NCBI GenBank assembly: GCA_038087875.1
Contig: CM075989.1
Location: forward strand, 3,286,001-3,350,000
From: Malacoraja senta
Taxonomy: Eukaryota
DNA: 64,000 nucleotides
Reading direction: 5' to 3'
The notes beneath the pieces are model-generated. The model did no database searches. It saw nothing but the letters and a program-made list of their open reading frames with translations, and was not told where the DNA came from. This document shows, in pieces, positions 25,781 through 57,244 of this stretch. Made by a program: the position numbers and the translations under genes. The stretch's first letter is position 1, and every line of letters begins with the position of its first letter.

Positions 25781-26030
25781 AGGATCTGTCCCACTTTCAC
25801 GACCTAATTCACGACCTCTGCCGAGTTTGCCCTTGACTCATACTCGCAGCATGGTCGTCACGAGGTTGGAGGAGGTCGGAGGTAGGTCGTGGGTAGGTCG
25901 TGGGTAGGTCGTGATGCTAGTCGTAGGTACTCGTGGCATCAATTGGGTCGGGGCGTTTTTTCTAGCCTGATGAAAAATGTCCATGAGTAAAAAAGGTCGT
26001 GAATTAGGTCGTGAAAGTGGGACAGGCCCA
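25781..26030. mobile_element. PIF/Harbinger MITE (250 bp)
   Basis: TIRs aggatctgtcccactttcacgacctaattcacgacc / ggtcgtgaattaggtcgtgaaagtgggacaggccca; TAA and TTA flanks. Confidence 0.85.
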
Positions 26031-26397
26031 TTAAACTAAACTAAATTAAGGTTTGAAAGTGCATTAAACCTGTTATTTAACAATGAACTGAAAGCATTCT
26101 TATTTAGCAACTTGTCAAAGTTATAACATACGTGTCACTTGGTTGTCCCTTATGTTGATGAATACTCTGTTGAATGTCTGCAGTTGTACAGTAGAGAGCA
26201 TATTGATTAGTTGCATCATGGCCTGCTACAGTAACTCGGACCGACTGGAACAAAGGACGCCGCAGAGAGTGGTGGACACTGCCCAGTCCAGTTCATCAAC
26301 TGACCTCCACACAAAGAACGGGATTTACAGGAAGGACTGCCTCAAGAAGACAGCTACTATCATCAAAGCCACACACCACTAAACCTACAACACCACA

Positions 26398-26825
26398 GGG
26401 CGGCACGGTGGCACAGCGGTAGAGTTGCTGCCTTACAGCGCTTGAAGCGCCAGAGCCCTGGGTTCAATCCCGATTATGGGTGCTGTCTGTACGGAGTTTG
26501 TACGTTCTCCCCATGACTGCGTGGGTTTTCGCCGAGATCTCCGGTTTCCTCCCACACTCCAAAGACATACAGGTTTGCAGGTCTGAAGAAGGGTCTCGAA
26601 CCGAAACCTCACCCATTCCTTCTCTCCAGAGATGCTGCCTGTCCCGCTGAGTTACTCCAGCTTTTTGTGCTTATCTCGGGTTTGCAGGTTATTTGGCTTG
26701 GTGTCTGTGTAAATTGTCCCTAGTGTGTGTAGGGTAGTGTTAATGTGTGGGGATCGCTGGTCGGCACAGACCCGGTGGGCCGAAGGGCCTGTTTCCATGC
26801 TGTATCTCTAAACTGAACTAAACCA
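26398..26825 (+). mobile_element. HE1-like SINE interrupted by a Penelope-derived unit
   Basis: Full tRNA-like head; insertion 26583-26678 flanked by GGTTTGCAGGT duplication. Confidence 0.85.
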
Positions 26826-28900
26826 CCCTGACCATGTGCAAGTGCCTGAGAATCATGACCTCTATGTTCAAGAACTGCTTCTTCCAAGCAACCTTCAAGT
26901 ACTTGGGCCAGAGTGCACATCCCTCACCACAACCTCACCAACCATCAACCAGCAATTCTGTTATGGTTGCATTATATATTTTGGTTTGCACAATTATAAT
27001 CTGGTTGCCTAGTATTACTGACATTTATTGTATTATTGATTAATGTATATTTATTTAGTGTAGTTTCGAGATACAGCGCAAAACGGGCCCTTCAGCCCAC
27101 CGAATCTGTGCCGACCGGTGGTCCCCAGGCAAATATGGCAAATGAATCTGAATCTGCAGAGTTTTTCAGTCATACCTAGCCAGGTTCGAGCCTGGGTCTC
27201 CGGCGCTGTGAGGCAGCAACTCTAACGCTGCGCCACCGTGCCGCCCCACGATGTTGTGTTGTGGTGTTAATGGGCTTGTAAAGCTGTAGTAAGTAAGTGT
27301 TTCATTGAACATAGACGCCAAATGCTGGAGTTACTCCAGCGTTTTGTGTCTACCTTCAATTTAAACCAGCATCTGCAGTTCCTTCCTACACAAGTGTTTC
27401 ATTGATCCATTGCTGGTGCCATTGTTAATTACACATCCTCTGACAAAGCTATGCCCTCTAGTCTTTGACGTTTTCATGCCGGGCAAAAGGTTCTGACGGT
27501 CTACCTGTGTAGGAAAGACCTCCAGATGCTGATTTAAATTGGTAGACACACAAAGCTGGAGTAACTCAGCGGGACAGGCAGCAGCTCTGGAGAGAAGGAA
27601 TGGATGACGTTTCGGGTCGAGACCCTTCTTCAGACTGATCTGTTTCGGGTCGAGACCCTCCTTCAGTCTGAAGAAGGGTCTCAACCTGAAACGTCACCCA
27701 TTCCTTCTCTCCAGAGATGCTACCTGTCCCACTGAGTTACTCCAGCATTTTGTGTCTACCCTGACCTGTGCCTCTCATAATTTTATAGACTTCCATATTC
27801 TCCCCCCTGTCTCTGATGTTCCAGAGAAAACAATCTAGGTTTGTCCATTATCCGTAATTTAGTTTAGTTTAGTGATACAGCATGGAAACCGGCCCTTCGG
27901 CACACAGTCCTTGCCGACCAGCGATCACCCCGCACTATCCTACAGACTAGGGACAATTTTCAATTCTTACCAAAGCCAGTTAACCTACAAACCTTGGATA
28001 GACACAAAAAGCCAGAGTAATTCAACGGGTCAGGCAGCATCTCTGGAGACTTTTCAGGCCAAGAACCCGAAACTCAACTCAATTCAGACCAGTCTCGTCC
28101 CGAAACATCACCTATTCCTTCTCTCCAGAGATGCTGTCTGGCTCGCTGTGTTATTCCAGCATTTTGTGTGTTTATCTTCAGCATCTGCAGTTTCTTCCTA
28201 CCCAATCTACAAACCTGTGCGTCTTTGGAGTGTGGGAGGAATGGTCTCGACCAGAAACGTCACCTATTCCTTCTCTCCAGAGATGCTGCCTGTCCCACTG
28301 AGTTACTCCAGCTTTTTGTGTCTATCTTCGGTTTAAACCAGCATCTGCAGTTCCTCCCGACACAGGAACTTTGTGAGAATCCCAGGCCATGAAAAGCACT
28401 ACATTAATGCAAGCTTTTTACTGTGGTAAAGAAACATTTCCCGATAAAAGAACAAGGGGCAGTGTCAGATGATTCAGCAATCATGTCCGCGCGCTGTGTA
28501 AATTGCAAGTCCCTGGTGCTGTGAAGATCAATAGAAGCCGTGAGCAGTTTTCCCAATAATGTCAGCACCACTTACTGTGTGAAAGACACTGCTTTAAATA
28601 TCACCTTAGAATAGCCAGGGAGACGTGAGGTTAATCTAAATGTTGTGTTTTTTTTGGCTGGGATCCTGAACGGTTGTCACCATCTCTAAATAATTAATTT
28701 CCATCCTATGGATCTGCGTTTAGTCACCTATTACTGTATTGCTGTCACAAGAAGCTTGAAATTTCACATCATTAATATCATAACTTGTGCACCACAGCAA
28801 CTTTCATTTCCATGAGGTAGGATTAAGTTTAGGTTTATTATTGTCACATGTAGCAAGGTACAGTGAAAAGCTTTTCCTTGCATGGTATCAAATCAAATCA

Positions 28901-29200
28901 GGGCAGCACGGTGGCGCAGTGGTAGAGTTGCTGCCTTACAGCACCAGAGACCCGGGTTCGTTCCTGACTACGGGTGCTGTCTGTATGGAGTTTGTACGTT
29001 CTCCCCGGGACCTGATTGGGTTTTCTCCTGGACCTCTGGTTTCCTCCCACACTTTTGTAGACTATTTGGCTTGGTATCATTGAAAATTTTCCCTAGTGTG
29101 TGTAGTTTAGCGTTAGCGTGCGGGGATTGCTGGTCAGCGCGGACTCGGTGGGCTGAAGGGCCTGGTTCCACGCTGTATCTATGAATTAAACTAAATTGAA
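28901..29200 (+). mobile_element. HE1-like SINE
   Basis: Head, core, tail. Confidence 0.85.
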
Positions 29201-29402
29201 CAAATCATAATACCGTATAATAATTATACAATCATAAATCCTATTTAATTTTATAGACTTCTGTATTCTCCCCCCAGTCTCTGTAATAATAATAATAATT
29301 ATATATTTTATTTATGGGCGCCTTATACCAAAGTCTCAAGGACACCTTACAGAGTTTAACAAGCAAGAAACATATAATCGGAGTAAAATAAATTATAAAG
29401 AC

Positions 29403-31758
29403 ATCACCAGTACACAAATTAAAGACAGAATTCGATCCAAAGACACAACAACAACAAAATCAGAAACACAATGTGAAGAGAGAGCAGCGGCAGCTAAACC
29501 GCGCCAGCGTCCACTCTCCCTTCCGACCGCCATCTTGGACACAGACTAAAATAGACTCTACATACAAAAATCATCCCCCCACAATGGTTACCACTCTGGG
29601 GGAAGGCACAATGTAGTTCCAGAAAAAACAATCCAGGTTTGTCTATTATCTATCTCAGGTCCCTTGACTATTATTCATTCCTCAATCACTAAAATGGACT
29701 ACACAATCAATCCAAGTGTGGGTAAAGAGAAAATACCAGAGTGCAGAATATAGTTTCTCAGCATTGTAGCTAAACATTATAGTTCCAGAGAAAAAGTTAA
29801 TTGGCCACAATGTCGAATGTCAAGTGAGTTATGTCACTAAACAGAGGACATTGCAGGTTGGGTCCCCTCTTCAGACAGATCGAGCATCCCGACCCAAAAC
29901 ATTATCTGTCCTCGTCCCAGTACAGATGCTGCTTGACCCACTGAGTTCCTCCAGCACTTTGTTTTTTACTCAGGATTCCAGCATCGGCAGAATCAAAGAA
30001 TTGCACATGCTGGTTGATACCAAAGGTAGACACAAAGTGATGGAGTAAGTAAGCGGGTCAAGCGATATCTCTGGATAAAACCCAGTATCTCTGGATTATG
30101 GGTCAGGACCCTTCGTCAGTCTGATGAATGGTCCCAACCTGAAACATCACCCATCCTTTTTCTCCAGAGATGCTACCGGACATGTTGAGTTACTCCAGCA
30201 TCTGCAGTCTCTTGTTTCTTGTGTATGAAGGAACTGCAGATACTGGTTTAAACCAAAGATCGACACAAAAAGCTGGAGTAACTCAGCAGGACAGGCAGCA
30301 TCTCTGGAGAGAAGGAATTCCGTCTGTCCCGCTGAGTTTTGTGTCTGTCTCTTGTCTCTGTCCAATGTCACTTCATGGGTACATACCAAATAAATTTGAC
30401 ACCAGGCCATGAAAGGAGTTATCTGGAGAAGTGCCAGATGGAGGAGTAATTAAGGAGAGCTCCAAAGCACCTTGAGAGGCAGGGGAGCGCAGGTGGGAAG
30501 AAGAGCGGAACTCGCTATCAAAACATGGAGGGGACGGGGGACACAATTTTTTGGCGGCTGCGCGCGCATGCGCACACTCACACACAAGCGCGCGAGGTTT
30601 CGGAGGCTTAATTCAGCGCTAAATGCAGCTCAACGCTGCCTGTCTCACCGGGTTAACCTACAGCCCTGGCTGGACTGATGGGTCACCAGCGCTGCTTCTC
30701 CGCGCTGGCCATATTTCCCGCAAGTCCAGGCAGGACAGGCAGAGTTGAGCTGGGTTTAGCGCTGTTTCTCTGCGCTGGCTGTGGGCCTGGGGGCACAGCT
30801 CCCGTCTGACTCCCGACCTCTCTGGCCACCCGTCGGGGGTGGGGGGGGCACTCGGGTGGGGACAGGACGGCGCTGGAGACCTGACCGGGATCGATCCTGC
30901 CTGCGGATGAGGCGCAAGTCTGTGCCACGTCTCCCTCCTCCAATCGCCGCGCTCTATCCTCAGTCTCACCCCCCCCCCCCTCCACTCCTCCCTCCTCCAA
31001 TCACCGCGCCCTCGATCAGCAGTCCCAACCCCACTGTCTCGCGGAAAGCGGAGATTTTAAAATACGGATCACAAAAACTTGGGGGGATGTCCCCCACCAC
31101 TCAAAACATGGGGGGGACGTGTAGCCTCTGGCTCCCCCCCATCCCCCCCCGGGTTTTCCGCCCCTGGGTGGGAAACATGAGACCTGAGCAGCTGAAGCCT
31201 CAATGACTGTTCACAAGGGAGGTCAGGATAGCGGAGACAGGACGCGGTGCCAGAGACGGCTGTAGAGTGCAACTAAAGCACCGTGACCGCATTTCAAAAC
31301 AAAGGACAGGAACGTTAACATTCGAACCAGAAGCAAACACAAGAATTTGTGTAGGAAGGAACTGCAGATGCTGGTTTAAATCGAAGATAGACACAAAATG
31401 CTGGAGTAACTCAGCGGGACAGGCAGCAGCATCTCTGGAGAGAAGGAATGGGTGAAGATTCAGGTCGAGACGCTTCTTCAGACCAGAAGCAAGCACGAGA
31501 ATGTTGGATAAGAAGAATTGTGCAAATTAGGCTCATGTTTGCGAAGTTTATGAAGGCTGCAGGGGATGGTGGCTGAGAGAGTGTTGGTGTAGTGGAGGAT
31601 AACAGCAACAAGGGTACATGGGTCAGTGTCCAACCTCACCCAGATTCAGTATTAACTCAACATCAAGTCTGACGCAGGGTCTCGACCCGAAACGTCGCCC
31701 ATTCCTTCTCTCCAGAGATGCTGCCTGTCCCGCTGAGTTACTCTAGCATTTTGTGTCT
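29403..31758 (+). repeat. Direct duplication of host DNA, copy 1 (2356 bp)
   Basis: Colinear with and highly similar to 36097-38441 from atcacca.tacacaaattaaagac to gcattttgtgtct. Confidence 0.95.
30500..31166. mobile_element. Non-autonomous hAT element, copy 1
   Basis: 8-bp TSD GGTGGGAA (30492-99, 31167-74); right TIR ttttccgcccctg, left TIR degenerate gaagagcggaa. Confidence 0.75.
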
Positions 31759-31814
31759 TTGATGCCGATATCAGCGAACGCTGGGCCACGTTTGAAATTG
31801 ATTACCAGCACTAC

Positions 31815-32870
31815 ATGAACATTGTACACCGAAATGAACCAGATGCTATTAAGGCCTCTCTCTTGCTCAACCTTGCGGGACCTGGTGCCCTTCGTCGATC
31901 CAGAACATTCCGTTATGCTCCGGCTATCCGTGATGCCCATGACCAGGTAATTACACCGGTGGAGTCTCCCACTGACCCTAATGTTTTGCTGCGTAAACTG
32001 GCTCAGATCTGTGACCTGCCCTCAAATCACATTTTGAACAGGGCAAGGTATTTCTCTCGTCGTCAACTTCCCGGGGAACGAGTGGACTCATATATTTCTT
32101 CTTTAATGTATCTAGCCCAACGTTGTCGATTTCAGGAAATGCCAGCGGATCAGTTGACTGATCAGTTAACGAGGGATATTTTAGTGAATGGTATCACCGA
32201 TGAAAAGCTCAGATCAGAGCTCTTGAAACGGCCAGAGTTATCGCTAGATGACGCGGCGCATGCATGCAGAACGGCTGAACTTGTTGATCCTATAGACATT
32301 CCACATGAAAGCAATACCATCAATCTGACGGGCCTCACTAGGCAGCGGACATACACAGATAACAGCCGATCTAAGATCCAAGCTAGCCAGGCAGCTCTCA
32401 GCGTTCCTTCACAGAAATGTCCTAACTGCGGCTATATACACAGCAGGCAATCCACCTGCCCCGCCCTCGGGAAGGTTTGTAATTACTGCAAAAAGCTAAA
32501 TCACTTTGCCTCAGCCTGTCGGGCTGCTATCAGGGCCCGAGGAAAGAATGCGCCCAGTCCCAAGTCTAATCTCAATTTTTTGCAACGAGACAGCAACATA
32601 CTGACTCCCCATTTCCAGCTCGAAGCCGCCCCCGAATGTATTTCATTTGACTCGCAAGTCGATCCTACTGTTTACATGTTACAGCATGCTGCTGCCAAGA
32701 ACTCTGATCCTACAGTGACGATATCTGTAAACAATGTTGCTTTTGCGCGAAACTGGATACGGGGGCGAGAGTCAATACAATGTCAATCAACCTTTTTAAC
32801 AGGATCAGGGCTAACGAGCCACTTGTCAAGGACGCGTCCACTTTACATGCTTTTGGTGGGGAGGTGCTAG
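31815..32870 (+). CDS. gag: Gypsy Gag (frame opens upstream at the junction, VFDADISERW..; gag-like homology ends ~32743)
   Basis: RQLPGERVDSYISSL..RDILVNGITDEKLRSELL capsid-like region; CPNCGYIH..C and CNYCKKLNHFASAC zinc knuckles. Confidence 0.88.
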   Translation: MNIVHRNEPDAIKASLLLNLAGPGALRRSRTFRYAPAIRDAHDQVITPVESPTDPNVLLRKLAQICDLPSNHILNRARYFSRRQLPGERVDSYISSLMYLAQRCRFQEMPADQLTDQLTRDILVNGITDEKLRSELLKRPELSLDDAAHACRTAELVDPIDIPHESNTINLTGLTRQRTYTDNSRSKIQASQAALSVPSQKCPNCGYIHSRQSTCPALGKVCNYCKKLNHFASACRAAIRARGKNAPSPKSNLNFLQRDSNILTPHFQLEAAPECISFDSQVDPTVYMLQHAAAKNSDPTVTISVNNVAFARNWIRGRESIQCQSTFLTGSGLTSHLSRTRPLYMLLVGRC

Positions 32871-35863
32871 TTCCTCTGGGCAAAGCCAACTTGAAATGTG
32901 TACTGAAGAAAACAACTAGGGAATTGACTTTCCATGTGCTGGACTTTAATTCGGTTACCCTGCTTGGCAATCGTGCCTGTCAGGAACTAGGGCTGATTTC
33001 CTTTGATAAAACTGTCCACAAACTGCAAGTTTCCTTTGATCCACTGAATGACTTCCCTGGTCTTTTCGACAACAACCTAGGCAAGTTGCCTGTGTCCTAC
33101 AAGATTACTATCGACCCCGATGTGACACCCGTTGTCCGAAACCCACACAGATTGTCATTTGCCATGACTGACAGGGTTCACTCTATGCTGAAGGACATGG
33201 TCTCCAAAGGCGTAATTGAAGCAGTCAGTGACCCCACCGACTGGGTCTCAACCATGATTGCCACAGTCAAGAAGGGAAAGGATGAAATCCGCCTGTGCAT
33301 TAATCCAAAAGACCTGAACACTGCCATTAAGCGCCCGCACCATCCCATGAAGACAGTAGAGGATGTTGCAGCAAAGATCGGAACGGCCACCCTATTTTCC
33401 GTCCTAGATGCAAAGAACTCATTCTGGCAGATACCGCTGGAAAAGAGGTCATCAAACCTCACCACATTTGCCACCCCATTTGGGAGATATAAGTTTCTGA
33501 GAATGCCATTCGGGATCAACTCTGCCAGCGAAGTCTTCCAAAGAACTATGGAACAATTATTCGAGGGTCTGCCTTGTGCCATTATTGTCGATGATATTCT
33601 TGTCTATGGCAAGGACGCGGTGGAACATGACCACAATCTCAGGCTCATCTTGGAGCGTGCTGTCAAGATCAACCTCAAGCTCAATCCTGACAAGTGCAAG
33701 TTCAGGGTTCCAGTGGTCTCCTATGTCGGCCACATCTTCACCCCTGACGGCCTCAAACCGGATCCGAAGAAGACTTCTGCCATCACAGAAATGCCTGCAC
33801 CCACTAACGTGAAAGGCCTGCAACGTTTCCTGGGCATGGTAAACTATCTCGGAAAGTTCATACCCAACCTCAGCGAATTAAGCTCCACATTGCGGCAGCT
33901 GACAAAAAAGGACACTGCGTGGTCATGGTTCCAGCAACATCAGGATGCCTTCGATGTTCTGAAATCAAAACTGACCAGTGCACCGACCCTGACTTTTTTC
34001 GACCTGAAACGTCCGGTGGTGATCACCTGCGATGCCTCGAAATTCGGGCTCGGCGCAGCCTGCCTGCAACCGTCTGATGATGGTACCCTACTACCCGTCG
34101 CGTATGCCTCTCGCACCATGACCGACACGGAGCAGCACTACGCGCAAATCGAAAAGGAACTGCTGGCGGTCGTCTTTGCCTGCTCCAAATTCCACGACTT
34201 CGTCTTTGGCAACACGTTCATGGTTGAGACGGACCACCAGCCACTGGTGACAATCTTGAACAAGCCTATCCATGCCGCCCCAGCTCGTTTGCAGCGCATG
34301 ATGATGCAGCTGCAGCGGTACGACTTCTCTATTACCTACACAAAGGGCAAGGACATGCATGTTGCTGACACACTCTCTCGTGCCCCTCGAACATCTTGCG
34401 AACAACACCCACACGAACAGGAGAATTTCACTGTTCTCGGTGTCGGTCTAATCTCCAGCAAGCAGCTGCGCACCCTGGCCGCGCACACTGCCAAGGATGA
34501 TACGCTTCAAGCCCTCTCGTCCATCATCAAAACAGGCTGGCCAGGCAAACATTCCAACACGCCCACAGAGGTGCAGCCGTACTTCTTGGTCCGCGATGAA
34601 CTGGTGGTTCAGGATGGTGTGGTCGTCAAGGGCCACAAGGTAGTTGTACCTGCATCGCTACAAGACGAATACTTCAAAGAGGTACACAGCGGTCACCCAG
34701 GAGCCGACTCCACACTGGCACGCGCCCGGGATCTGTTCTACTGGCCCGGAATGGCCACGTACATCCGGGACCGCGTAGCCTCCTGCCCCACTTGCAACAA
34801 TCTTGCACCTCATCAGCAGCGGCAACCCCTTCTGCAACAACCTCCACCAGCACTGTCATGGTTGTCGCTGGCTGTGGACATTTTCGAATGGTGCGGTAAG
34901 CACTACCTCGTTCTGGTCGACTCGTACTCCAACTGGTTTGAACTTGACCAACTTACCTCCCTCACGTCGGTGATGGTCATCAGGAAGCTGAAAAGACATT
35001 TCTCAGACCATGGGATTCCTGTTATTCTGAGAACCGACAATGGTCCACAGTTCACCAGCCACTCGTTCAAGCTTTTCGCCGACCGATGGAACTTCCAGCA
35101 CGTCACAAGCAGTCCCGAGTATCCACAGAGTAATGGACTCGCTGAACGCGCTGTCAGGAGCGCCAAGCACTTGCTGGAGGGAGCGCGCATTTCAAAGTCT
35201 GACGTCTATCTCGATCTACTGAATCTCAGAAACATTGCAAGAGACGGAATCTTGGGGTCACCAGCACAGCGGCTGCTGTCGAGGGTGACGAGGTCTCCGG
35301 TCCCCATCGCACAACAGCAGCTGGTTCCTCGGGTGTTGAAGCCCGCCACTATCCAAGAGAAGCACGACACCCAGAAACGGTCATACGACAGCTCCAGCAG
35401 ACCACTCCAGCCTCTACTGCCGGGCCAGGTCGTCCGTCTACGAACTCCAACTGGTCATTCTCGTCTGGGCGTTGTTGTGCGCCCGACTGATGAGCCGCGA
35501 TCGTACCTTGTGGACTGTGAGGGAGCGGTTTACCGGAGAAGTCGTCAACACCTGCTTGCTGTGAAGGAGCCCCGACCGCCGCCTGCCGATCCCTATGCTC
35601 CGCCGCTCCAGTTCCAGCCGCCTTCCGCAATGTCTCCCGCCCGTCCCCGCATGCCTGGCACTCCCCCACGTCCATCTGTCTCCACTAACCACGGGGTTTC
35701 ACCCACCGCATGTTTCCCCCCTCGGTCACCACAATCCTCTCCCGTGCGGTTTTCACCTTCAGCCTCTCCGCCTCACCCTTCAGTTGAGGGAGGGGATGGT
35801 TGGGTCCGCATGCGTTCGGGCCGTGTTAGTGGACCACCAGACAGGCATGGCGAGTATGTTTAA
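32780..35863 (+). CDS. pol: Gypsy Pol: protease, reverse transcriptase, RNase H, integrase
   Basis: KLDTGA protease motif just upstream in the same frame (32750-32767); RMPFG and IVDDILV RT; DASKFGLGA and ETDHQPL RNase H; H..H..C..C, TDNGPQF and NGLAER integrase; 1027 aa uninterrupted. Confidence 0.95.
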   Translation: MSINLFNRIRANEPLVKDASTLHAFGGEVLVPLGKANLKCVLKKTTRELTFHVLDFNSVTLLGNRACQELGLISFDKTVHKLQVSFDPLNDFPGLFDNNLGKLPVSYKITIDPDVTPVVRNPHRLSFAMTDRVHSMLKDMVSKGVIEAVSDPTDWVSTMIATVKKGKDEIRLCINPKDLNTAIKRPHHPMKTVEDVAAKIGTATLFSVLDAKNSFWQIPLEKRSSNLTTFATPFGRYKFLRMPFGINSASEVFQRTMEQLFEGLPCAIIVDDILVYGKDAVEHDHNLRLILERAVKINLKLNPDKCKFRVPVVSYVGHIFTPDGLKPDPKKTSAITEMPAPTNVKGLQRFLGMVNYLGKFIPNLSELSSTLRQLTKKDTAWSWFQQHQDAFDVLKSKLTSAPTLTFFDLKRPVVITCDASKFGLGAACLQPSDDGTLLPVAYASRTMTDTEQHYAQIEKELLAVVFACSKFHDFVFGNTFMVETDHQPLVTILNKPIHAAPARLQRMMMQLQRYDFSITYTKGKDMHVADTLSRAPRTSCEQHPHEQENFTVLGVGLISSKQLRTLAAHTAKDDTLQALSSIIKTGWPGKHSNTPTEVQPYFLVRDELVVQDGVVVKGHKVVVPASLQDEYFKEVHSGHPGADSTLARARDLFYWPGMATYIRDRVASCPTCNNLAPHQQRQPLLQQPPPALSWLSLAVDIFEWCGKHYLVLVDSYSNWFELDQLTSLTSVMVIRKLKRHFSDHGIPVILRTDNGPQFTSHSFKLFADRWNFQHVTSSPEYPQSNGLAERAVRSAKHLLEGARISKSDVYLDLLNLRNIARDGILGSPAQRLLSRVTRSPVPIAQQQLVPRVLKPATIQEKHDTQKRSYDSSSRPLQPLLPGQVVRLRTPTGHSRLGVVVRPTDEPRSYLVDCEGAVYRRSRQHLLAVKEPRPPPADPYAPPLQFQPPSAMSPARPRMPGTPPRPSVSTNHGVSPTACFPPRSPQSSPVRFSPSASPPHPSVEGGDGWVRMRSGRVSGPPDRHGEYV

Positions 35864-35879
35864 TATTCTTTTAATCTTT

Positions 35880-35890
35880 AGGGGGAAGGA
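35880..35890 (+). promoter_or_regulatory. Polypurine tract (plus-strand primer)
   Basis: AGGGGGAAGGA immediately before the TG start of the LTR. Confidence 0.85.
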
Positions 35891-36096
35891 TGTAGATTGA
35901 TGATGCATGTGAATCAATCACACTTAGCCAGCATCACTAACTCCGCCCCATTATAACATTTATACTAACGCCCATTCCCAGCACCGTTAGTTGAAGCAGC
36001 CAGGATGAACTGACAACACCTCGCTCTGTAATGCTGCCAAGTTAAAGTGCTGATTAAAGATGTGTGTAAATCTTATATGCTTTGAAGTGATATACA
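35891..36096 (+). repeat. 3' LTR (206 bp)
   Basis: Starts TGTA and ends TACA; follows the PPT; contains TTATAA and ATTAAA; ends exactly where duplicated host DNA resumes. Confidence 0.85.
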
Positions 36097-38441
36097 ATCA
36101 CCAATACACAAATTAAAGACAGAATTCGATCCAAAGACACAACAACAAAATCAGAAACACGATGTGAAGAGAGAGCAGCGGCAGCTAAACCGCGCCAGCG
36201 TCCACTCTCCCTTCCGACCACCATCTTGGACACAGACTAAAATAGACTCTACATACAAAAATCATCCCCCCACAATGGTTACCACTCTGGGGGAAGGCAC
36301 AATGTAGTTCCAGAAAAAACAATCCAGGTTTGTCTATTATCTATCTCAGGTCCCTTGACTATTATTCATTCCTCAATCACTAAAATGGACTACACAATCA
36401 ATCCAAGTGTGGGTAAAGAGAAAATACCAGAGTGCAGAATATAGTTTCTCAGCATTGTAGCTAAACATTATAGTTCCAGAGAAAAAGTTAATTGGCCACA
36501 ATGTCGAATGTCATGTGAGTTATGTCACTAAACAGAGGATATTGCAGGTTGGGTCCCCTCTTCAGACAGATCGAGCATCCCGACCCACAACATTATCTGT
36601 CCTCGTCCCAGTACAGATGCTGCTTGACCCACTGAGTTCCTCCAGCACTTTGTTTTTTACTCAGGATTCCAGCATCGGCAGAATCAAAGAACTGCACATG
36701 CTGGTTGATACCAAAGGTAGACACAAAGTGATGGAGTAACTAAGCGGGTCAAGCGATATCTCTGGATAAAACCCAGTATCTCTGGATTATGGGTCAGGAC
36801 CCTTCGTCAGTCTGATGAATGGTCCCGACCTGAAACATCACCCATCCTTTTTCTCCAGAGATGCTACCGGACATGTTGAGTTACTCCAGCATCTGCAGTC
36901 TCTTGTTTCCTGTGTATGAAGGAACTGCAGATGCTGGTTTAAACCAAAGATCGACACAAAAAGCTGGAGTAACTCAGCAGGACAGGCAGCATCTCTGGAG
37001 AGAAGGAATTCCGTCTGTCCCGCTGAGTTTCGTGTCTGTCTCTTGTCTCTGTCCAATGTCACTTCATGGGTACATACCAAATAAATTTGACACCAGGCCA
37101 TGAAAGGAGTTATCTGGAGAAGTGCCAGATGGAGGAGTAATTAAGGAGAGCTCCAAAGCACCTTGAGAGGCAGGGGAGCGCAGGTGGGAACAAGAGCGGA
37201 ACTCGCTATCAAAACATGGAGGGGACGGGGGACACAATTTTTTGCCGGCTGCGCGCATATGCGCACACTCACACACAAGCGCGCGAGGTTTCGGAGGCTT
37301 AATCCAGCGCTAAATGCAGCTCAACGCTGCCTGTCTCATCGGGTTAACCTACAGCCCTGGCTGGACTGATGGGTCACCAGCGCTGCTTCTCCGCGCTGGC
37401 CATATTTCCCACAAGCCTAGGCAGGACAGGCAGAGTTGAGCTGGGTTTAGCGCTGTTTCTCTGCGCTGGCTGTGGGCCTGGGGGCACGGCTCCCGTCTGA
37501 CTCCCGACCTCTCTGGCCACCCGTGGGGGGGGGGCACTCGGGTGGGGACAGGACAGCGCCGGAGACCTGACCGGGATCAATCCTGCCTGCGGATGAGGCG
37601 CAAGTCTGTGCCACGTCTCCCTCCTCCAATCGCCGCGCTCTATCCTCAGTCGCACCCCACCCCCCCACTCCTCCCTCCTCCAATCATCGCGCCCTCGATC
37701 ATCAGTCCCACCCCCACTGTCTCGCGGGAAGCGGAGATTTTAAAATACGGATCACAAAAACTTGGGGGGGATGTCCCCCACCACTCAAAACATGGGGGGG
37801 ACATGTCCCCTCTGGCTCCCCCCCCCCCCCCCCGGGTTTTCCGCCCCAGGGTGGGAAACATGAGACCTGAGCAGCTGAAGCCTCAATGACTGTTCACAAG
37901 GGAGGTCAGGATAGCGGAGACAGGACGCGGTGCCAGAGACGGCTGTAGAGTGCAACTAAAGCACCGTGACCGCATTTCAAAACAAAGGACAGGAACGTGA
38001 ACATTCGAACCAGAAGCAAACACAAGAATTTGTGTAGGAAGGAACTGCAGATGCTGGTTTAAATCGAAGATAGACACAAAATGCTGCAGTAACTCAGCGG
38101 GACAGGCAGCAGCATCTCTGGAGAGAAGGAATGGGTGAAGATTTAGGTTGAGATGCTTCTTCAGACCAGAAGCAAGCACGAGAATGTTGGATAAGAAGAA
38201 TTGTGCAAATTAGGCTCATGTTTGCGATGTTTATAAAGGCTGCAGGGGATGGTGACTGAGAGAGTGCTGGTGTAGTGGAGGATAACAGCAACAAGGGTAC
38301 ATGGGTCAGTGTCCAACCTCACCCTGACTCAGCAATAACTCAACATCAAGTCTGACGCAGGGTCTCGACCCGAAACGTCGCCCATTCCTGCTCTGCACAG
38401 ATGCTGCCTGTCCCGCTGAGTTACTCGAGCATTTTGTGTCT
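36097..38441 (+). repeat. Direct duplication of host DNA, copy 2 (2345 bp)
   Basis: Matches 29403-31758 with scattered substitutions and small indels. Confidence 0.95.
37191..37849. mobile_element. Non-autonomous hAT element, copy 2 (duplicated passively)
   Basis: Same GGTGGGAA TSD (37183-90, 37850-57). Confidence 0.75.
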
Positions 38442-38939
38442 ATCTTCAGCATTAACAACACCTTACACGGACAATGGATCAAAGCATGAAGCGCAGGAGG
38501 AATTCAGCCGGTCAGGTAGCATCTGTGGAGGCAATGGATTGATTGATTGAAAGATACAGCCTGGAAACAGGGCCATCGGCCCAACATATCCACGGCAACC
38601 CATCAATGACCCATTTACAGGCTCTCGGAAGCCGAACGACCCGGCGGGGGGGGTGGGTGGTGCGGCAAAAACATAGAGGGACCCTGCAGGGGGTGCGGGG
38701 TGGGGGGAGGGAGCGCCTATTCCATGTGTAGAGGAAGGTCTGGTTCTCCATTGCGAGAAGATAAGACTGTACTAAGAACTTTTGAAGCATTGTTGGCGCC
38801 CGGAACATGGCGAATCCTTGTGTACTGCCTCGGTGAGGTCTGCTGTATAGTTTTACCAGGTTGCATGCAAAAACTGAGAATTTCACTGTACCTAAGTACA
38901 TGTGACAATAAAGTGTCATTGAATCATTGAATCACGTTG

Positions 38940-44400: not shown

Positions 44401-46107
44401 CTGTGTGGCAAAATAGTGGAAGATGTATCACAGTCCTGCTCTTGATGGTACCCAATGAAAATGTAGGACAGATCAGTGGAAATTCTGTACCAGGGTTTTA
44501 CAAGAGCTGAAAACTGGGTGGCACTGAGGCACAGCAGATAGAGCCTGACAGCACCAGAGACCCGGTTCGATCCTGACCTCAGGTGCTCTCTGTGTGGAGT
44601 TTGCACGTTCTCTCTGTGACTGCATAGGTTTCCTCCAGGTGCTCCAGTTTCCTCCCACATCCCCCAGACGTGCAGGTTTGTGGGATAATCAGCCTCTGTA
44701 AATTGCCTCTGGCGTGCAGGGAGTGGATGAGAAAGTAGAATAACATGGGACTAGTGCGAATGGGTGATCGATGGCCGGCAGTGACTCTGTGGGCTGAAGG
44801 GCCTACCACCATGCTGTAGCTTATCATCAATCAATCAGAATAAAAACCCTTTGACAGTTCTTGAGCTAATTACACCAGCTCTTTGATCTAAACGGTGCTC
44901 GGCATAAGTGGAGCCTGTGAATGTTTTATCCATTATGCAAGAGCGCTGCAGGCACTGAACAAACACATCGTGACAGAGAAAGTTTGATAAGTATTTAAGA
45001 GAACAGCTTAATATCAAGTGTGGAAGCTATCAGCCTTTGAGTGTAAAGGGCTGTGTTTCGAGGGGTTCTCAGGTTTACATATTGCAGGCAGTTCAAAGCT
45101 GCACAGCCTGGGCCTAACCCTAATCCTACATGGACATCGTGTGCTTGGCCACCCCTCCTGGAGATCTGGTGGGGCACAGTGGTCCCCACATCAACTACAA
45201 TCCACCGTCTGACAATGAAATATGAATCAAGATGTCAAGATGTCACATGTTCACGAGCCAGAGGCAATTTAAATTTAATTTGAAAAGGAATTAACATCCA
45301 AACTGTTTTTACCTCAGAACCACTTTAGCTGAACCTTGTGCATCAAAGCACCTGCTCTCTTTACATCGACAAAGGCAAAGTAAACAGTGCTGCTGTATTT
45401 CTAGCCATTACACCTTGTTTAGGATTCACTGCTTTAGTGAGAAACACCCTTGCTTCCTGAACGGTCATCATTTATCTATCACCAATGGTGGAGACAGCTT
45501 TAGTCATAGCCAGCTAATCATGAGAGGAATAGATCGGGTAGATGCACAGAGTCTCTTGCCCAGAGTACGTGAATCGAGGACCAGAGGATATAGGTTTAAG
45601 GTGAAGGGGAAAGGATTTAATAGGAATCTGAGGGGTAACTTTTGCACGCAAATGATGGTGGGTGTATGGAACAAGCTGCCAGAGGAGGTAGTTGAGGCTG
45701 GGACTATCCCATCGTTTAAGAAACAATTAGCAGGTACATGGATAGGTTTGGAGGGATATGGACCAAATGCACGTAGGTGGGACTAGTGTAGCTGGGACAT
45801 GTTGGGCCGAAGGGCCTGTTTCTACACTGCATCACTCTAACCATCTCAACATCTGGTCCATTTAGCATGAAGGGTGTTGAATTGATTGAAGTGAGTTGAA
45901 ATGAAAGTTACAGCATGGAAACGAGTCTTCAGCCCACTGACTCCACGCCGATCAGCGCTCACTGTTCACACTAGTTCTATCTTATCGCACTTTCACAAAC
46001 TCAATGCTAGCATTTATTTCAAGAGGGCTTGTACACAAAAACAGGGATGTAACGCTGAGTCTCTATAAGGCACTGGTCAGGCCGCATTTGGAATATGGTG
46101 AGCAATT

Positions 46108-47912
46108 TTGTCCAAAAACGCACAAAATTCCAAGGTCCTTTTTAACACCATCACCTCCATCATCTGTCCTGCCCCCAGCACCAGCCTAACTGGGTCCCCT
46201 GCTAAGTGCGAGGAATTTACCACATTTTTCACCAGCAAGGTAAAGAACATAAGAACGAATATTTCCCCTCCCACCCGTGACCTGGCTGTCTCATTGGTCT
46301 GCTCTTCAAAATTAGACAATTTCCAACCCGTTACTCTACCCTCCCTTGTAAAACTGATCACCACCATGAAACCTACTACCTGCCCCCTCGACACTGTCCC
46401 CTCTGCCCTCCTAAAGGACGTCATTACAACAGCTGGTCCCAGCATCCTCGCCATCTTCAACAGCTCTCTGGCCACTGGCACTGTATCTACCTGCTTCAAG
46501 CATGCGGTGGTCCAACCACTCCTGAAAACACCTAACCTCGACCCCACCTTGCCAAGCAACTACAGACCCATTTCTAAACTGCCTTTCCTCTCAAAAGCCC
46601 TTGAAAAGGTAATTTTAAGTCAACTTATACCTTACCTTACCTTCAACTTATACCTTACCTTACCTTACCTTCACCTATCTTGGAAACTTTCCAATCAGGT
46701 TTCAGGGCTCACCATAGCACAGAGTCTGCCTTGTTGAAGGTACACAATGACCTACTGCTCACCGTTGACTCCGGCGACTGTGCAATTCTGCTCCTTCTTG
46801 ACCTCAGTGCAGCATTTGATACTGTTGACCACACCATCCTAATTGACCGTCTCCGGTACGGGGTTGGTATTGATGGCACTGCCCTGAGCTGGTTCATCTC
46901 CTACCTCAAAGGTAGGAGTTTCTCGACTAACATAGGCAACTCTTTCTCCTCCCCAGCTAATCTGTGCTGTGGGGTTCCACAAGGTTCCATCCTTGGCCCC
47001 ATTCTCTTCTCCCTGTATATGCTCCCCTTGGGCCAAGTCATTGAAAGGCACGGCATTTCCTTCCATTGCTACGCAGACGATACACAACTCTATCTCTCTC
47101 TGAAGCCCAAAAACCAATCAAATCTGTTTAACCTTACCCACTGCCTCGAGGATATAAAGTGTTGGATGGCCCAGAACTTCCTCCAACTAAACGAGAGTAA
47201 GTCTGAGGTCATCCTTCTCGGCCCCTCGGACTCAATCAAAATGATAGCAGGCAGCCTTGGAAGCCTTACCCCACTACTCAAACCTTACGTCAAAAACCTT
47301 GGCGTGATATTTGACTCAGCACTGAAATTTGACAAACAAGTCAATGCCGTGGTAAAAGCTAGCTTCTTTCAGCTTCGGACGATAGCTAAAATAAAACAAT
47401 TTCTCCAGTTTGATGACCTCGAAAAGATCATCCACACATTCATCTCCTCCCGCCTAGATTACTGCAACTCCCTTTACACTGGCATCAGCCAATCTTCCCT
47501 GTCCCGCCTGCAACTGGTCCAAAACGCCGCAGCGAGACTCGAAAATGGGACCCGAAAAAGGGACAACATCACCCCGATCCTGGCCTCTCTCCACTGGCTC
47601 CCTGTGCGGTTCCATATAAACTTCAAGATCCTCCTCCATGTCTACAAAGCCCTCAATGGGCTTGCCCCCACCTACATAAAAAGTCTTCTCACCCACCACT
47701 CCACCTCCAGGCCCCTCAGATCGGCCGACTTGGGGTTGTTGAATATCCCACGGTCTAGGCATAAGCTCAGGGGCGACCGCGCCTTTGCGGTTGCAGCCCC
47801 TAGACTGTGGAACAGCATCCCCTTTCCCATCAGAACTGCCCCCTCCATCGACTCTTTTAAGTCAAGACTAAAGACTTATCTATACTCCCAAGCCTTTCCT
47901 GACGTCCTCTGA
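46108..47912 (+). pseudogene. L2 ORF2 reverse transcriptase (one frameshift near 46630-46680)
   Basis: NYRPISKLPFLSKALEK; QSGFRAHHSTESAL; LDLSAAFDTVDH; GVPQGSILGP; YADDTQLY; DYCNSL; LHWLPV. Confidence 0.9.
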
Positions 47913-52159: not shown

Positions 52160-53587
52160 TTTCTTTTTTTCTTTTTTTTTTTTGATTAATATTTTTATTA
52201 GAAGCAAACATATTATAAAGTACAGTAACATATTATAATAGAAAAAACAAATTTTCATATACATCAATCATACATTATTAAAATTGTCAATTGTCGATTA
52301 ATTCTGTTTCTAGTGTTTTTTAAAAATATAGATAGAAAAAGAGAGGTAGAAAGAAAAAAAGCATTACAAATATCGGGGGGAAAAAAGAGGTGGAATAAGT
52401 TACTTATAATACGTCATTGGAGATAAGTTCGTAGGTTATGAAATATAATTTTACATCTAATCCTGAGTTCAAGCTTCAGTTGGGTTTTCGTGCTGGGCCC
52501 ATCTATCCCTTCAAATAGTTAATGAATGGAGCCCATATTTTAACAAAAGTTCTTGTTTGTCCATTAAGACAAGTCTAATTCTTTCCACAATCCACATTTT
52601 AATTGTGGGGGTTATAGGACCTTTCCAAAATTTTAATATTCATTTTTTCCCAGTTATTATACTGTAGTCAAGGAAGTTTCGTTGGCTTGTTGTGAGTGTT
52701 AAACTTTGTTCTGATATCCCAAGTATTATTAATTTTGAGTCTGGATCCAATTTAGTATAAACAACTTCAGAAATTATTTCAAAAATATCAATCCAGAAAT
52801 TTTTGATTTTTATACAATTTGCAAAGGTATGTGTTAAATTGGCCTCTAGATGTAGGCATTTATCACAGATAGGAGAAATATGTGGGAAGATTCTATTTAG
52901 TTTTATTTTGGAGTAATGTAATCTGTGTAAGACTTTAAATTGTATTAAAGCATGTCTGGCATTTAACGAGCATTGATGTATATGTTGTAAACTTTCGTCC
53001 CAAATGTCTTTCGTTATAGAGTGACCTAACTCATGTTCCCATGTGTGTCTATATAGTTCCATCGGTGGTACCTCATTGTTTAAGAGGGTGTTATAAATAT
53101 AAGCTATTAATTTTTCAGTGTTAGGATGCTTATTCAAACATTCATAAAGAATTTCTGCTTCCCTAGTCCTATATACTTGTGTATTAGATTTAACATAATC
53201 TCTTAATTTGTAGATATCTGAAAAAATTATTTGAGTGTAGTCCATAATTCTGTTGTAACTCTTGAAATGACAGAAAGATGCCTTCCCTATAAAGATGTCC
53301 AATCTTTTTAATTCCATAATTTTTCCATTGTATAAAACCTCTATCCAATATGGATGGCTTGAATAAAGGATTATTTACAATGGGAAGACATAGTGGTATA
53401 TTATTCAGTTTTAAAGCTTTTTTAAATTGTTTCCAAATTCGTATTCCACTATGTATTATAGGGTTTTCCTTATAGGTTTTTTTATGCAATTTTGTGGGAG
53501 CAAATATAATCGAACCAATTTCAAAAGGTAAACAGTCTTCCTTTTCCATCCTTAACCATTCTGGATATTGATCCATTTCTTCCAGCC
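52160..53587 (-). mobile_element. L1-clade LINE, 5'-truncated, poly(A)-tailed, 18-bp TSD
   Basis: ORFs 53190..53576 and 52640..53317(-) with LIQFKVLHRLHYS..CDKC..NLTHTFANC zinc motif; T-run at 52160-52183; TSD AGAGT(A/C)GTACCTTTTTCT at 52142-59 and 53588-605. Confidence 0.9.
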
Positions 53588-54110: not shown

Positions 54111-54833
54111 AGTTAGTTGGGCCGCAGGGCCAGTTACTTATGGAAAGAAAGTCCTAAACCAAAGGGCAACTGGAAGGTGAAAATCTCAGCCAAAATATGT
54201 TGTGGGAAGCAGTCTTTGGAGACATTAAAATGAAATGCAACTAATGCTTGATAAAAAGTAGAGATCTCCACGGGGAATGAGTTAGAGAGATGAATTAAAC
54301 TAGGTAATTCATGTGGAGACAAGAATAAGCAAGTAATTGATGTTTCTATGATCCCATTTGCTCTCAAATATACTTGGCTGTCAGATTAGACAGGAGCTGT
54401 CTGGCTCAGTGAGTGAGAAAGCCCAGTGCCACAAAGCTCCATTAGAACCAACCAAAGGAAGACACAAAATGCTGGAGTAACTCAGCGGGACAGGCAGCAT
54501 CTCTGGAGAGAAGGAATGGGTAACGATACGGGGCGAGATCCTTCTTCAGGCCCAAATCGTCACCCATTCCTTCTCTTCTATCTTCGATGTAAACCAGCAT
54601 CTGCAGTTCCTCCCTGTGCACTGTGTTTACATTTGTGCCTTACAAGGTCATAAGGCCATAAGTGATAGGAACAGAATTAGGCCATTCGGCCCATCAAGTC
54701 TACTCTGCCATTCAATCATGGCTGATCTATCTCTCCCTCCTAACCGCATTCTCCTACCACCTCTCCATAACCCCTGTCACCTGTACTAATCAGGAATCTA
54801 TCTATCTCTGCCTTAAAAATATCAATTGAGTTA

Positions 54834-55358: not shown

Positions 55359-57244
55359 TTAGCCTCCACAGTCTTCTGTGACAAAGAATTCCACAGATTC
55401 ACCACCCTCTGAATAAAGAAATTCCTCCTCACCTCCTTCCTAAAGGTAGTCCTTTAATTCTGTGGCTATCACCTCTATTCCTAGACTCTCCCATGAGTGC
55501 AAACATCCCCAGAAGTAAGACTGATTTGCAATGTGGTAGGGGCAGTGGTACACTGTTCTGTAGTGCAGGCTGCATATACCTTTCCGTATACCTGAGCTGC
55601 GATACATAATGACGTATGCCTTCCACAGACAACATTTCCTAGGATGGAACTGCAGGTGCTGGTTTACACCAAAGATAGACAGAAAATGCTGGAGTAACTC
55701 AGCGGGACAGGCAGCATCTCTGGAGAGAAGGAATAGGTAAAGTTTCAGTCAGTCTGAAGAAGGGACTCGACCCGAATCGTCGCCTATTCCTTCTTTCCAT
55801 AGATGCTGCCTGACCCGGTGAGTTTCTCCAGCATTTTTGTCTACCTTTGATTTTTCCAGCATCAGCAGTTCTTCTTAAACACAACAGGCCGAGACCCTTC
55901 TCCAGTTTAAGATGCTGCCTGACCTATTGAGTTACTCCAGCATTTAGTGTCTATCTTCTATGCATTCTGCAATCTGTATAGCAGCAGAGTGCAACATGGT
56001 ACGCCATCCATACTATTGTTTTACTTCGGAGTCACGTGAGTGAATCCGTGAAGAAGCCCCGCCAGTCCGCATGCGCGTCATTACGTCGTTTGCTCGTGCC
56101 AGCGGTAAGTTTAAACCTGCAGGTAAGTTTTGTATTCTTTACCAGGTTGTGTTTTTCTTGCAGGAATCTCTTTGTATAAGAGGTTTCCTGCTGGATATGT
56201 CGGGGCGATGTCTGGACGGGCTGCGGGAAACCGGTTATGGGCCATGGGGAATCGACACTCCGGTCAGCACCGCGGAAGCGCGGGTAACCGGCGGGCCGTC
56301 GGGTTCGCTGCCGCAGTGACCGCTGTGGTTCCCGTGGAGGGGGTGAATCCAGCAGCGGTATCGCCACCAGAGTCGCTGACAGTGTGGTCAGCAGCTTCCA
56401 GACCGCTGTGGTTCTCGTGGAGGAGATATATCCAGGAGCGGTGTCGCCACCAGAGTCACTGACAGTGTGATCAGCGGGTCCCAGACCGATGGTGCGCCTA
56501 TGAAAGGAGGTGAATCCAACAGTGAGTCGGTCAGGCCTGTGGACTCGGGGAGTCGGGCCAGGATGGTTCCCCTCCTTCAATGGGTAACGTCTTCGGACGT
56601 TTGGCCCACATGGAGCACCTGATGGACAGGTTGCTCCACAATGGTACGCTCCAAAGGAGGGAGGTATCAGCCCAGGTCTCCTTGGCTGTTTCAGGGCTGT
56701 CCAGAGGAGATGTTCCAGCAAGAGAAGCATTATATCCGCGGGTCTCCTCGGGGGCCTGTGGCAGCAGCACCTGTAGAAGGGCTGCATGATGTCTCCCTCT
56801 TGGAGGAGGTGAGCACACGGAGTCAGTTTTGTTCTGACTCCGAGATCGGAGGTATAGCTGATGAGCTCCGAGATCGGAGGTATAGCTGCGGGACCCGGAG
56901 CTGGGGCAGCTGATGAGCAGACCACGAGGCAGGGCCCTGCGACAGCACCTGTTCAGGGCTGTCTACCAATCTCCATCTCAGTGGAGGGGAGTGCGAGTGG
57001 TCAGTGGGTAACTGACTTCAAATTCTAAAGTATGTCCGTGGAACGTACTGGAGCACATGCGTATGGATTCAAGAGAGTCCTCGCAAACGAAGGTGGCAGG
57101 ATACCCGGAAGGGGCCAGAGTTCCCCTCATGCTATAAGTGCCGGGAATGAACAGCGCTATCAGGGGTGACATTAAAGACCAGCCGTCGAATCTTCTCTTC
57201 AGGTAAGACCTATTCAACAGGTAAAACCAGGATGAGGAAGCAAA

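Follow-up and report, generated by a model that had tools for sequence, protein, structure and literature searches.

A Ty3/Gypsy copy with a single long terminal repeat between two copies of a 2.35-kb host segment in Malacoraja senta

Structure of the locus

The DNA considered here is a stretch of 64,000 nucleotides from Malacoraja senta (GenBank assembly GCA_038087875.1, contig CM075989.1, positions 3,286,001 to 3,350,000 of the forward strand), which is referred to as the window and in which all coordinates are counted. Between positions 29,403 and 38,441 it holds a retrotransposon copy of the Ty3/Gypsy family, which possesses only one long terminal repeat (LTR) and lies between two copies of the same host DNA, called A and A'. 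The locus is built up as follows.

29403..31758, forward strand: A, the left copy of the duplicated host DNA (self-BLAST and global alignment)
31759..32735, forward strand: gag frame, about 11 N-terminal codons short, with the CCHC knuckle and the protease start, and broken within the protease
32738..35863, forward strand: pol frame, with the remaining protease, reverse transcriptase (RT), RNase H and integrase; free of stops (Pfam; best relative 59%)
35880..35890, forward strand: polypurine tract of 11 nt
35891..36096, forward strand: the only LTR, 206 bp, TG...CA, whose end is an integrase-type junction
36097..38441, forward strand: A', the right copy of the duplicated host DNA, which runs on into the right flank

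A self-BLAST of the window aligns A with A' at 97.2% identity over 2357 columns, and this is the sole pair in the window that is at least 93% identical and longer than 103 bp. The gag frame, pol frame, purine tract and LTR fill the space between them. The terminal CA of the LTR lies at 36096, A' starts at the base immediately after it, and at 31758/31759 the host DNA passes straight into gag. This anatomy had been described in an initial annotation made from the letters alone, together with the clean integrase-type junction at 36096/36097 and the missing 5' LTR. All three are borne out, the last by a permissive search of the 64-kb window, which gave no trace of a second LTR and a best other match of 12 bp. 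No target site duplication of 4-6 bp was found at either left junction, and the window contains 0 N in 64,000 nt. The annotation had also taken A and A' for host DNA and not for LTRs, and their pieces are indeed high-copy host repeats by depth. The idea that A is a degenerate LTR is ruled out, as a genuine LTR with its polypurine tract is present and A is composed of host repeats.

The copy is a member of the Ty3/Gypsy family by descent, yet it is not an intact insertion. The order of protease, RT, RNase H and integrase behind a gag with a CCHC knuckle, and the polypurine tract directly before a TG...CA LTR, are those of the family; two LTRs, a primer-binding site and a target duplication of 4-6 bp are not found together with them. 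The locus does show what a one-ended integrant is expected to show, namely one normal integrase end, and a truncated other end joined to a host duplicate that starts at the integrase junction. The structure is real in the assembled sequence, and it is probably present in the animal.

Divergence of the two copies and decay of the element

The two copies of host DNA differ by 53 substitutions at 2344 sites (2.26%; 32 transitions and 21 transversions) and by 6 indels in the global alignment. The divergence is uneven, being 1.1% up to about position 30550 and 3.3% beyond it (permutation p 0.014), and with CpG sites removed the unevenness persists (p 0.006) with a later change point. At 14 sites the direction of change could be polarised with paralogs in the window, and the derived state lies in A' at 9 of these, in A at 4 and in both copies at 1 (p 0.30). 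Between 31545-31744 and 38228-38427 there are 12 non-CpG differences in about 200 bp, including two tight clusters, and from 31404 onward every polarisable change is derived in A', one of them in both copies. The unevenness suggests a later partial gene conversion or allelic exchange.

The pol frame, in which Pfam recognises RVT_1, RT_RNaseH, Integrase_H2C2 and rve, measures 1027 aa from its Met and 1051 aa from stop to stop. The 1027-aa frame begins downstream of the protease DTG motif, the first protease strands sit in the gag frame, and the protease is divided between the two frames near 32735. As each of the 40 relatives of at least 1290 aa is one single Gag-Pol protein, this split marks the copy as frameshifted, and the open Gag-Pol frame of its relatives is interrupted here inside the protease. 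The unbroken 1027-aa pol of the initial annotation therefore stands as a stop-free frame, but not as the sign of an intact element. Programmed frameshifting is unlikely, because the relatives are single-frame and the switch cuts through the protease. The comparison of sequencing runs, whose counts were incomplete, gave no indel row at the frame change. The closest named proteins come from the skate Leucoraja erinacea, with 54% for gag and, for pol (P0070), 69% over 61% of the query; P0004 is the pol relative at 59%. In searches for related loci, 10 distant loci from metagenomes (identity of the longest matches 26-28%) and 0 viral ones came up, and these were not used.

The decay of the element is compatible with the age of the duplication. 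With the A/A' substitution spectrum, about 1.05 stops would be expected in pol and 0.53 in gag at that age, and the probability of no stop is 0.35 for pol, 0.59 for gag and 0.21 for both frames at 1.13%. Between 0.9 and 3.5 frameshifts are expected, and the one observed is within this range. The initial annotation had leaned toward two different alleles on the ground that pol is open, and this lean does not hold, given the probability of about 0.35 for a stop-free pol and the frameshift. Of 143 invariant pol columns 4 are altered, for a missense expectation of 2.5% that does not separate out lineage changes. There are 10 departures at pol columns conserved at 95%, and 4 of these are common to a closer relative, so that they provide no clean clock.

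Sequencing runs were also used. A total of 24 runs was found, the best of which hold 0.47 and 0.40 of the words, and four of them (X23, X24, X1 and X2, all contig sets) were compared on 26000-36140, a reference outside which the junction of A' with the right flank lies. In the Gypsy region, letter counts were obtained for 13 rows from 40 of the 243 listed, which is a lower bound. In at least 9 of the 13, this copy departs from about 80% or more of its family, and these 9 comprise 4 non-synonymous, 4 synonymous and 1 non-coding position. The depth of the Gypsy family in organism E is about 1000-1240 times single copy in gag, versus 13-24 in two related organisms, an apparent family expansion in organism E. 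The LTR bin there reaches about 9000-10000 times single copy, about eight to ten times the gag depth; this ratio suggests many solo LTRs, summed contig depth being a rough measure.

Junctions and host repeats

At the left junction, the last host base at 31758 doubles as the first base of a conserved Phe codon of gag. Each of three gag relatives carries 11 extra N-terminal residues before the first residue seen here, so that the loss is limited to the 5' LTR, the primer site, the leader and about 33 bp. The host triplet preceding the Phe base encodes Val, a residue found in two of the three gag relatives, with Ile in the third. The chance of host letters giving the conserved Val is 1/16. Of the full set of 123 proteins, 58 have the gag start motif; Val stands there in 21 of them and Ser in 26. 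One base of microhomology is thus certain at the junction, and 4-5 bp (TGTCT) are plausible, though unproven, because the host letters encode the Val of two gag relatives.

The window as a whole is animal DNA with a high density of short repeats. The repeats that meet the two ends of A are the following.

29283..29545, reverse strand: repeat resembling a short interspersed element (SINE) across the start of A, with its head in A and its TAA-repeat tail in the left flank
31667..31758, forward strand: end piece of a small high-copy repeat, palindromic in part, where A meets gag
38350..38447, forward strand: the same terminal repeat piece in A', 6 bp longer and reaching its natural end

The repeat at 29283-29545, which we take to be a SINE, is retained in A' only by its head part. 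In X23 the depth of its family is about 430,000 at 29325 and about 380,000 in the next bin, versus 29 for single copy, and is of the same order on either side of 29403. From this depth and structure, the left side would be the undisturbed target, and the right side the same target cut and joined to the LTR. No paralog in the window spans 29403, and the continuity of the target rests on structure and depth. The locus thus reads as a Gypsy integration into the SINE-like repeat. The tail of this repeat lies at about 15,000 times single-copy depth in X23 versus 155-310 in X1 and X2 (at 90% likeness), and the target repeat is young and lineage-specific.

The junction of A with gag falls 6 bp inside the natural end of the small repeat piece. 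The initial annotation was right about the fusion of A into gag and overlooked this nearby repeat end. A random break so close to the end of a repeat has a chance of about 0.1%, a figure calculated post hoc. The small repeat, often palindromically paired, is represented by 57 BLAST pieces, which make up 7.6% of the 64 kb, and its copies end mainly at two spots, 0-6 and about 41 bases past one motif. The copy at 54460-54520 on the reverse strand stops at the very base where A stops.

We presume the small junction repeat to be of Penelope type; neither this label nor that of a hAT miniature inverted-repeat transposable element, given to pieces of A and A' by the initial annotation, could be confirmed. 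No match to a Penelope motif was made from the accessible part of PMC4209133. An Rfam scan gave no gathering-level match, 8 sub-threshold matches and no hammerhead, and no tRNA gene was found in the window. Elsewhere, two overlapping frames of 211 and 435 aa at 46102-47912 (forward strand) look like a non-LTR reverse transcriptase of the L2/CR1 kind. Stop-free frames of 244 and 306 aa lie at 52640-53374 and 56032-56952 (both reverse strand), and the first of these resembles the end of an L1-type ORF2.

Origin of the duplication and known systems

The reading that we favour, at about even confidence, is that a Ty3/Gypsy cDNA long ago integrated aberrantly, by one end only, in the germ line, its left end being joined by host repair that copied A. 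A precedent is provided by aberrant proviruses of human immunodeficiency virus (HIV-1) and avian sarcoma-leukosis virus (ASLV), which, in the part of PMC5041404 available, have one normal end and another that is often truncated. There, a short nearby homology lets the free 3' end prime synthesis by the host, recombination completes the joint, and most often hundreds to thousands of host bases are duplicated. This paper also agrees with the retroviral precedent put forward in the initial annotation. Applied to the present locus, integrase would have joined the CA end of the 3' LTR to host DNA within the SINE, as the clean junction without a target duplication indicates. The other end would have stayed unjoined and lost the 5' LTR, primer site and leader by trimming that reached about gag codon 12; the truncation is visible, its timing presumed. 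By the published HIV/ASLV model, the free 3' end may then have annealed over a few bases to host DNA lying 2.35 kb downstream and primed host repair synthesis back to the cut, with resolution into the left arm, so that A would be present twice. Both copies and the element would since have decayed neutrally, by about 1.1% per copy on average and with one frameshift, and a later partial gene conversion or allelic exchange may lie behind the uneven divergence.

Several observations lead to the one-ended reading. The first base of the duplication is precisely that of the LTR junction, and neither a 5' LTR remnant nor a short target duplication is present. The loss is confined to the extreme 5' end (11 codons, LTR and leader), which suits a trimmed free end. 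Additionally, the gag frame is carried on by host letters that supply the conserved Val and the first Phe base, and both copies carry derived changes.

Other observations weigh against it. The microhomology is unverified past one base, and no read or contig is displayed across 31758/31759. In the run comparison, repeats swamped the tables of joints and loose ends (34,237 joint rows beyond those displayed), and the junctions were neither shown nor excluded. The position of the junction 6 bp inside a repeat end is not predicted by one-ended integration, and its product is indistinguishable at one locus from that of a two-step event. The remaining point concerns age. At four sites where at least 99.8% of the family depth of organism E has another letter, a residual of about single-copy depth was seen at 2 of 4 sites in X23, 0 of 4 in X24 (depth about 2), and 2 of the 3 covered sites in each of X1 and X2. 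These are hints of this copy in X23, and possibly in related species too, with the residual letter undisplayed and a contribution from ancestral subfamily states possible. The left flank differs at 24 of 504 positions in X1 and 23 of 505 in X2. An insertion present in a species 4.7% away, if real, would be older than the average A/A' distance implies, the probability of no stops would drop to 0.04-0.11, and gene conversion or exchange would be needed to reconcile an insertion before the split with the 2.26% mean.

The next reading, which is possible but clearly less probable, invokes two steps. A full-length insertion would have been followed by a 5' break, repaired from a segregating empty allele (or by unequal exchange with it) and rejoined through microhomology at gag codon 12; in a variant, a fork switching templates through the original target duplication would give the same product. 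The residual depths just described hint at an insertion before the split at 4.7% flank distance, with the reservation already given on the letter behind them, and the divergence by blocks (1.1%, then 3.3%) agrees with a mosaic of alleles. However, two rare events would have to fall within a limited time, an exchange point placed at random need not hit the first gag codons, and the argument from an open pol fails. One-ended integration and exchange between empty and occupied alleles, the two mechanisms of the initial annotation, are also the two leading readings here.

It is improbable, in our judgement, that the small high-copy repeat served to make the left junction, although this would account for the position of the junction at its end. 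The loose end could have taken up about 60 bp from a different repeat copy before switching into the one at the end of A; alternatively, a repeat piece inserted in gag could have undergone ectopic recombination with the copy on an empty allele. Of 48 other rows of the repeat in the window, 11 end 0-5 bases past the same motif (BLAST ends are fuzzy). The last 61 bp of A match the copy at 54460-54520 at 60 of 61 positions and A' at only 57 of 61, while the first 31 bp of the repeat piece have 3 derived letters common to A and A'. Several appended templates are allowed for in the accessible part of PMC5041404. Yet 4 differences in 61 bp are nothing unusual for the local rate (p 0.13-0.29; with the mean rate, 0.05), and the stretch compared was picked after the data were seen. 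The excess of changes derived in A' begins about 300 bp before the small repeat piece, in a different repeat piece, and no special hairpin was found in the fold of the junction at 31758/31759 (z -0.8).

Least probable of these is an assembly artefact, in which an empty haplotype (flank and A) was mis-joined to an occupied one (gag to LTR, and A'). The junction is without read confirmation. Three locus-specific depths in X23 are 0.65, 0.73 and 0.81 of the flank, between half and full; short single-copy contigs in X1 and X2 also scatter, from 0.68 to 1.17 of flank depth (18 values), and the X23 ratios lie near the low end of this spread. The yardstick is the single-copy left flank:

28336..28847, no strand: X23 contig of 512 bp, 0 differences, depth 29

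In X23, the one run concerned, the left flank shows 0 differences in 512 bp and 0 in 192 bp (0/704 in all), for which the probability is at most about 2e-5 if the locus is 2.26% heterozygous or polymorphic. This argues against alleles 2.3% divergent, and the A/A' divergence does not equal heterozygosity, a comparison that the initial annotation had proposed. Weighing against this argument, skates can be very heterozygous, the little skate at 1.6% (PMC10115646), so that 2.3% between alleles is not absurd. Against a mis-join there stand, further, the 0 N and the lack of a long joinable overlap (at most 5 bp are shared), the in-frame Val, which suggests a biological joint, and the improbability that an old insertion is still heterozygous with an empty allele. 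Tandem duplication of an occupied allele with subsequent LTR-LTR loss is ruled out, as it would leave an LTR before A.

The scar itself is already known from HIV, ASLV, xenotropic murine leukemia virus-related virus (XMRV) and the human endogenous retrovirus HERV-K, and the present case is a single example and not a new phenomenon. It extends the retroviral scar to Ty3/Gypsy, with a duplication longer than in the germ-line cases compared (111-450 bp); no published LTR-retrotransposon case turned up among the listings of a literature search from which most subscription papers were missing. Such copies escape tools that require two LTRs and a short target duplication. Recombination of A with A' can restore a seemingly empty site and confound presence/absence markers, as discussed for HERV-K in the accessible part of PMC5488345. 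The family appears to have roughly a thousand gag-bearing copies in this organism, by the rough measure of summed depth, which would allow a count of how often such events occur. As a lone locus without genes, at which the mechanism is undecidable, it changes no view. It would be a doubtful step to propose that single-end integration with host repair is routine for high-copy Gypsy elements in vertebrate germ lines, with loose ends caught preferentially by small-repeat ends. If true, LTR retrotransposons would be a steady, overlooked source of kilobase tandem duplications, their size set by repeat spacing.

Among known systems, the single-ORF Ty3/Gypsy elements of fishes and marine invertebrates (K02A2.6-like) have the same domain order and gag start motif, whereas this copy is frameshifted and lacks the 5' LTR, primer site and gag start. 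Human T-cell leukemia virus (HTLV-1) copies without a 5' LTR likewise have their interior joined to host DNA and the 3' LTR intact, but those with loss before integration keep a normal 6-bp repeat, in contrast to the 2.35-kb repeat and absent short one here (PMC6950816, part available). XMRV clone C-3 combines a damaged left LTR end with a long duplication of 273 bp, but only 5 bp are gone from its LTR and it arose in cell culture (PMC2857682, part available). Closer are two germ-line HERV-K(HML-2) copies, each with one LTR and a truncated interior between two host copies, as far as the accessible parts of the sources tell. The one at 6p25.2 has deleted ORFs and 111-bp repeats (PMC5488345), and the one at 21q21.1 is truncated with a 450-bp duplication, put down to inefficient integration (PMC4422153). 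The same ambiguity between one step and later rearrangement is discussed there. A 1.7-kb duplication at HERV-H, considered as a further parallel, did not turn up in the accessible part of PMC6298018 and is not counted. The duplication here is 5-20 times longer, the element is Ty3/Gypsy and not a retrovirus, and the HERV-K copies lack the 3' end where this is stated, whereas the present copy lacks the 5' end. The aberrant HIV-1 and ASLV proviruses agree with this copy in one integrase end, a truncated and repaired end with short homology (here plausible) and a long host duplication. They differ in that they arose somatically in experiments, with mutated ends, inhibitors or weak integrase as the trigger, whereas the Gypsy copy described here is a natural germ-line one, old and mutated.

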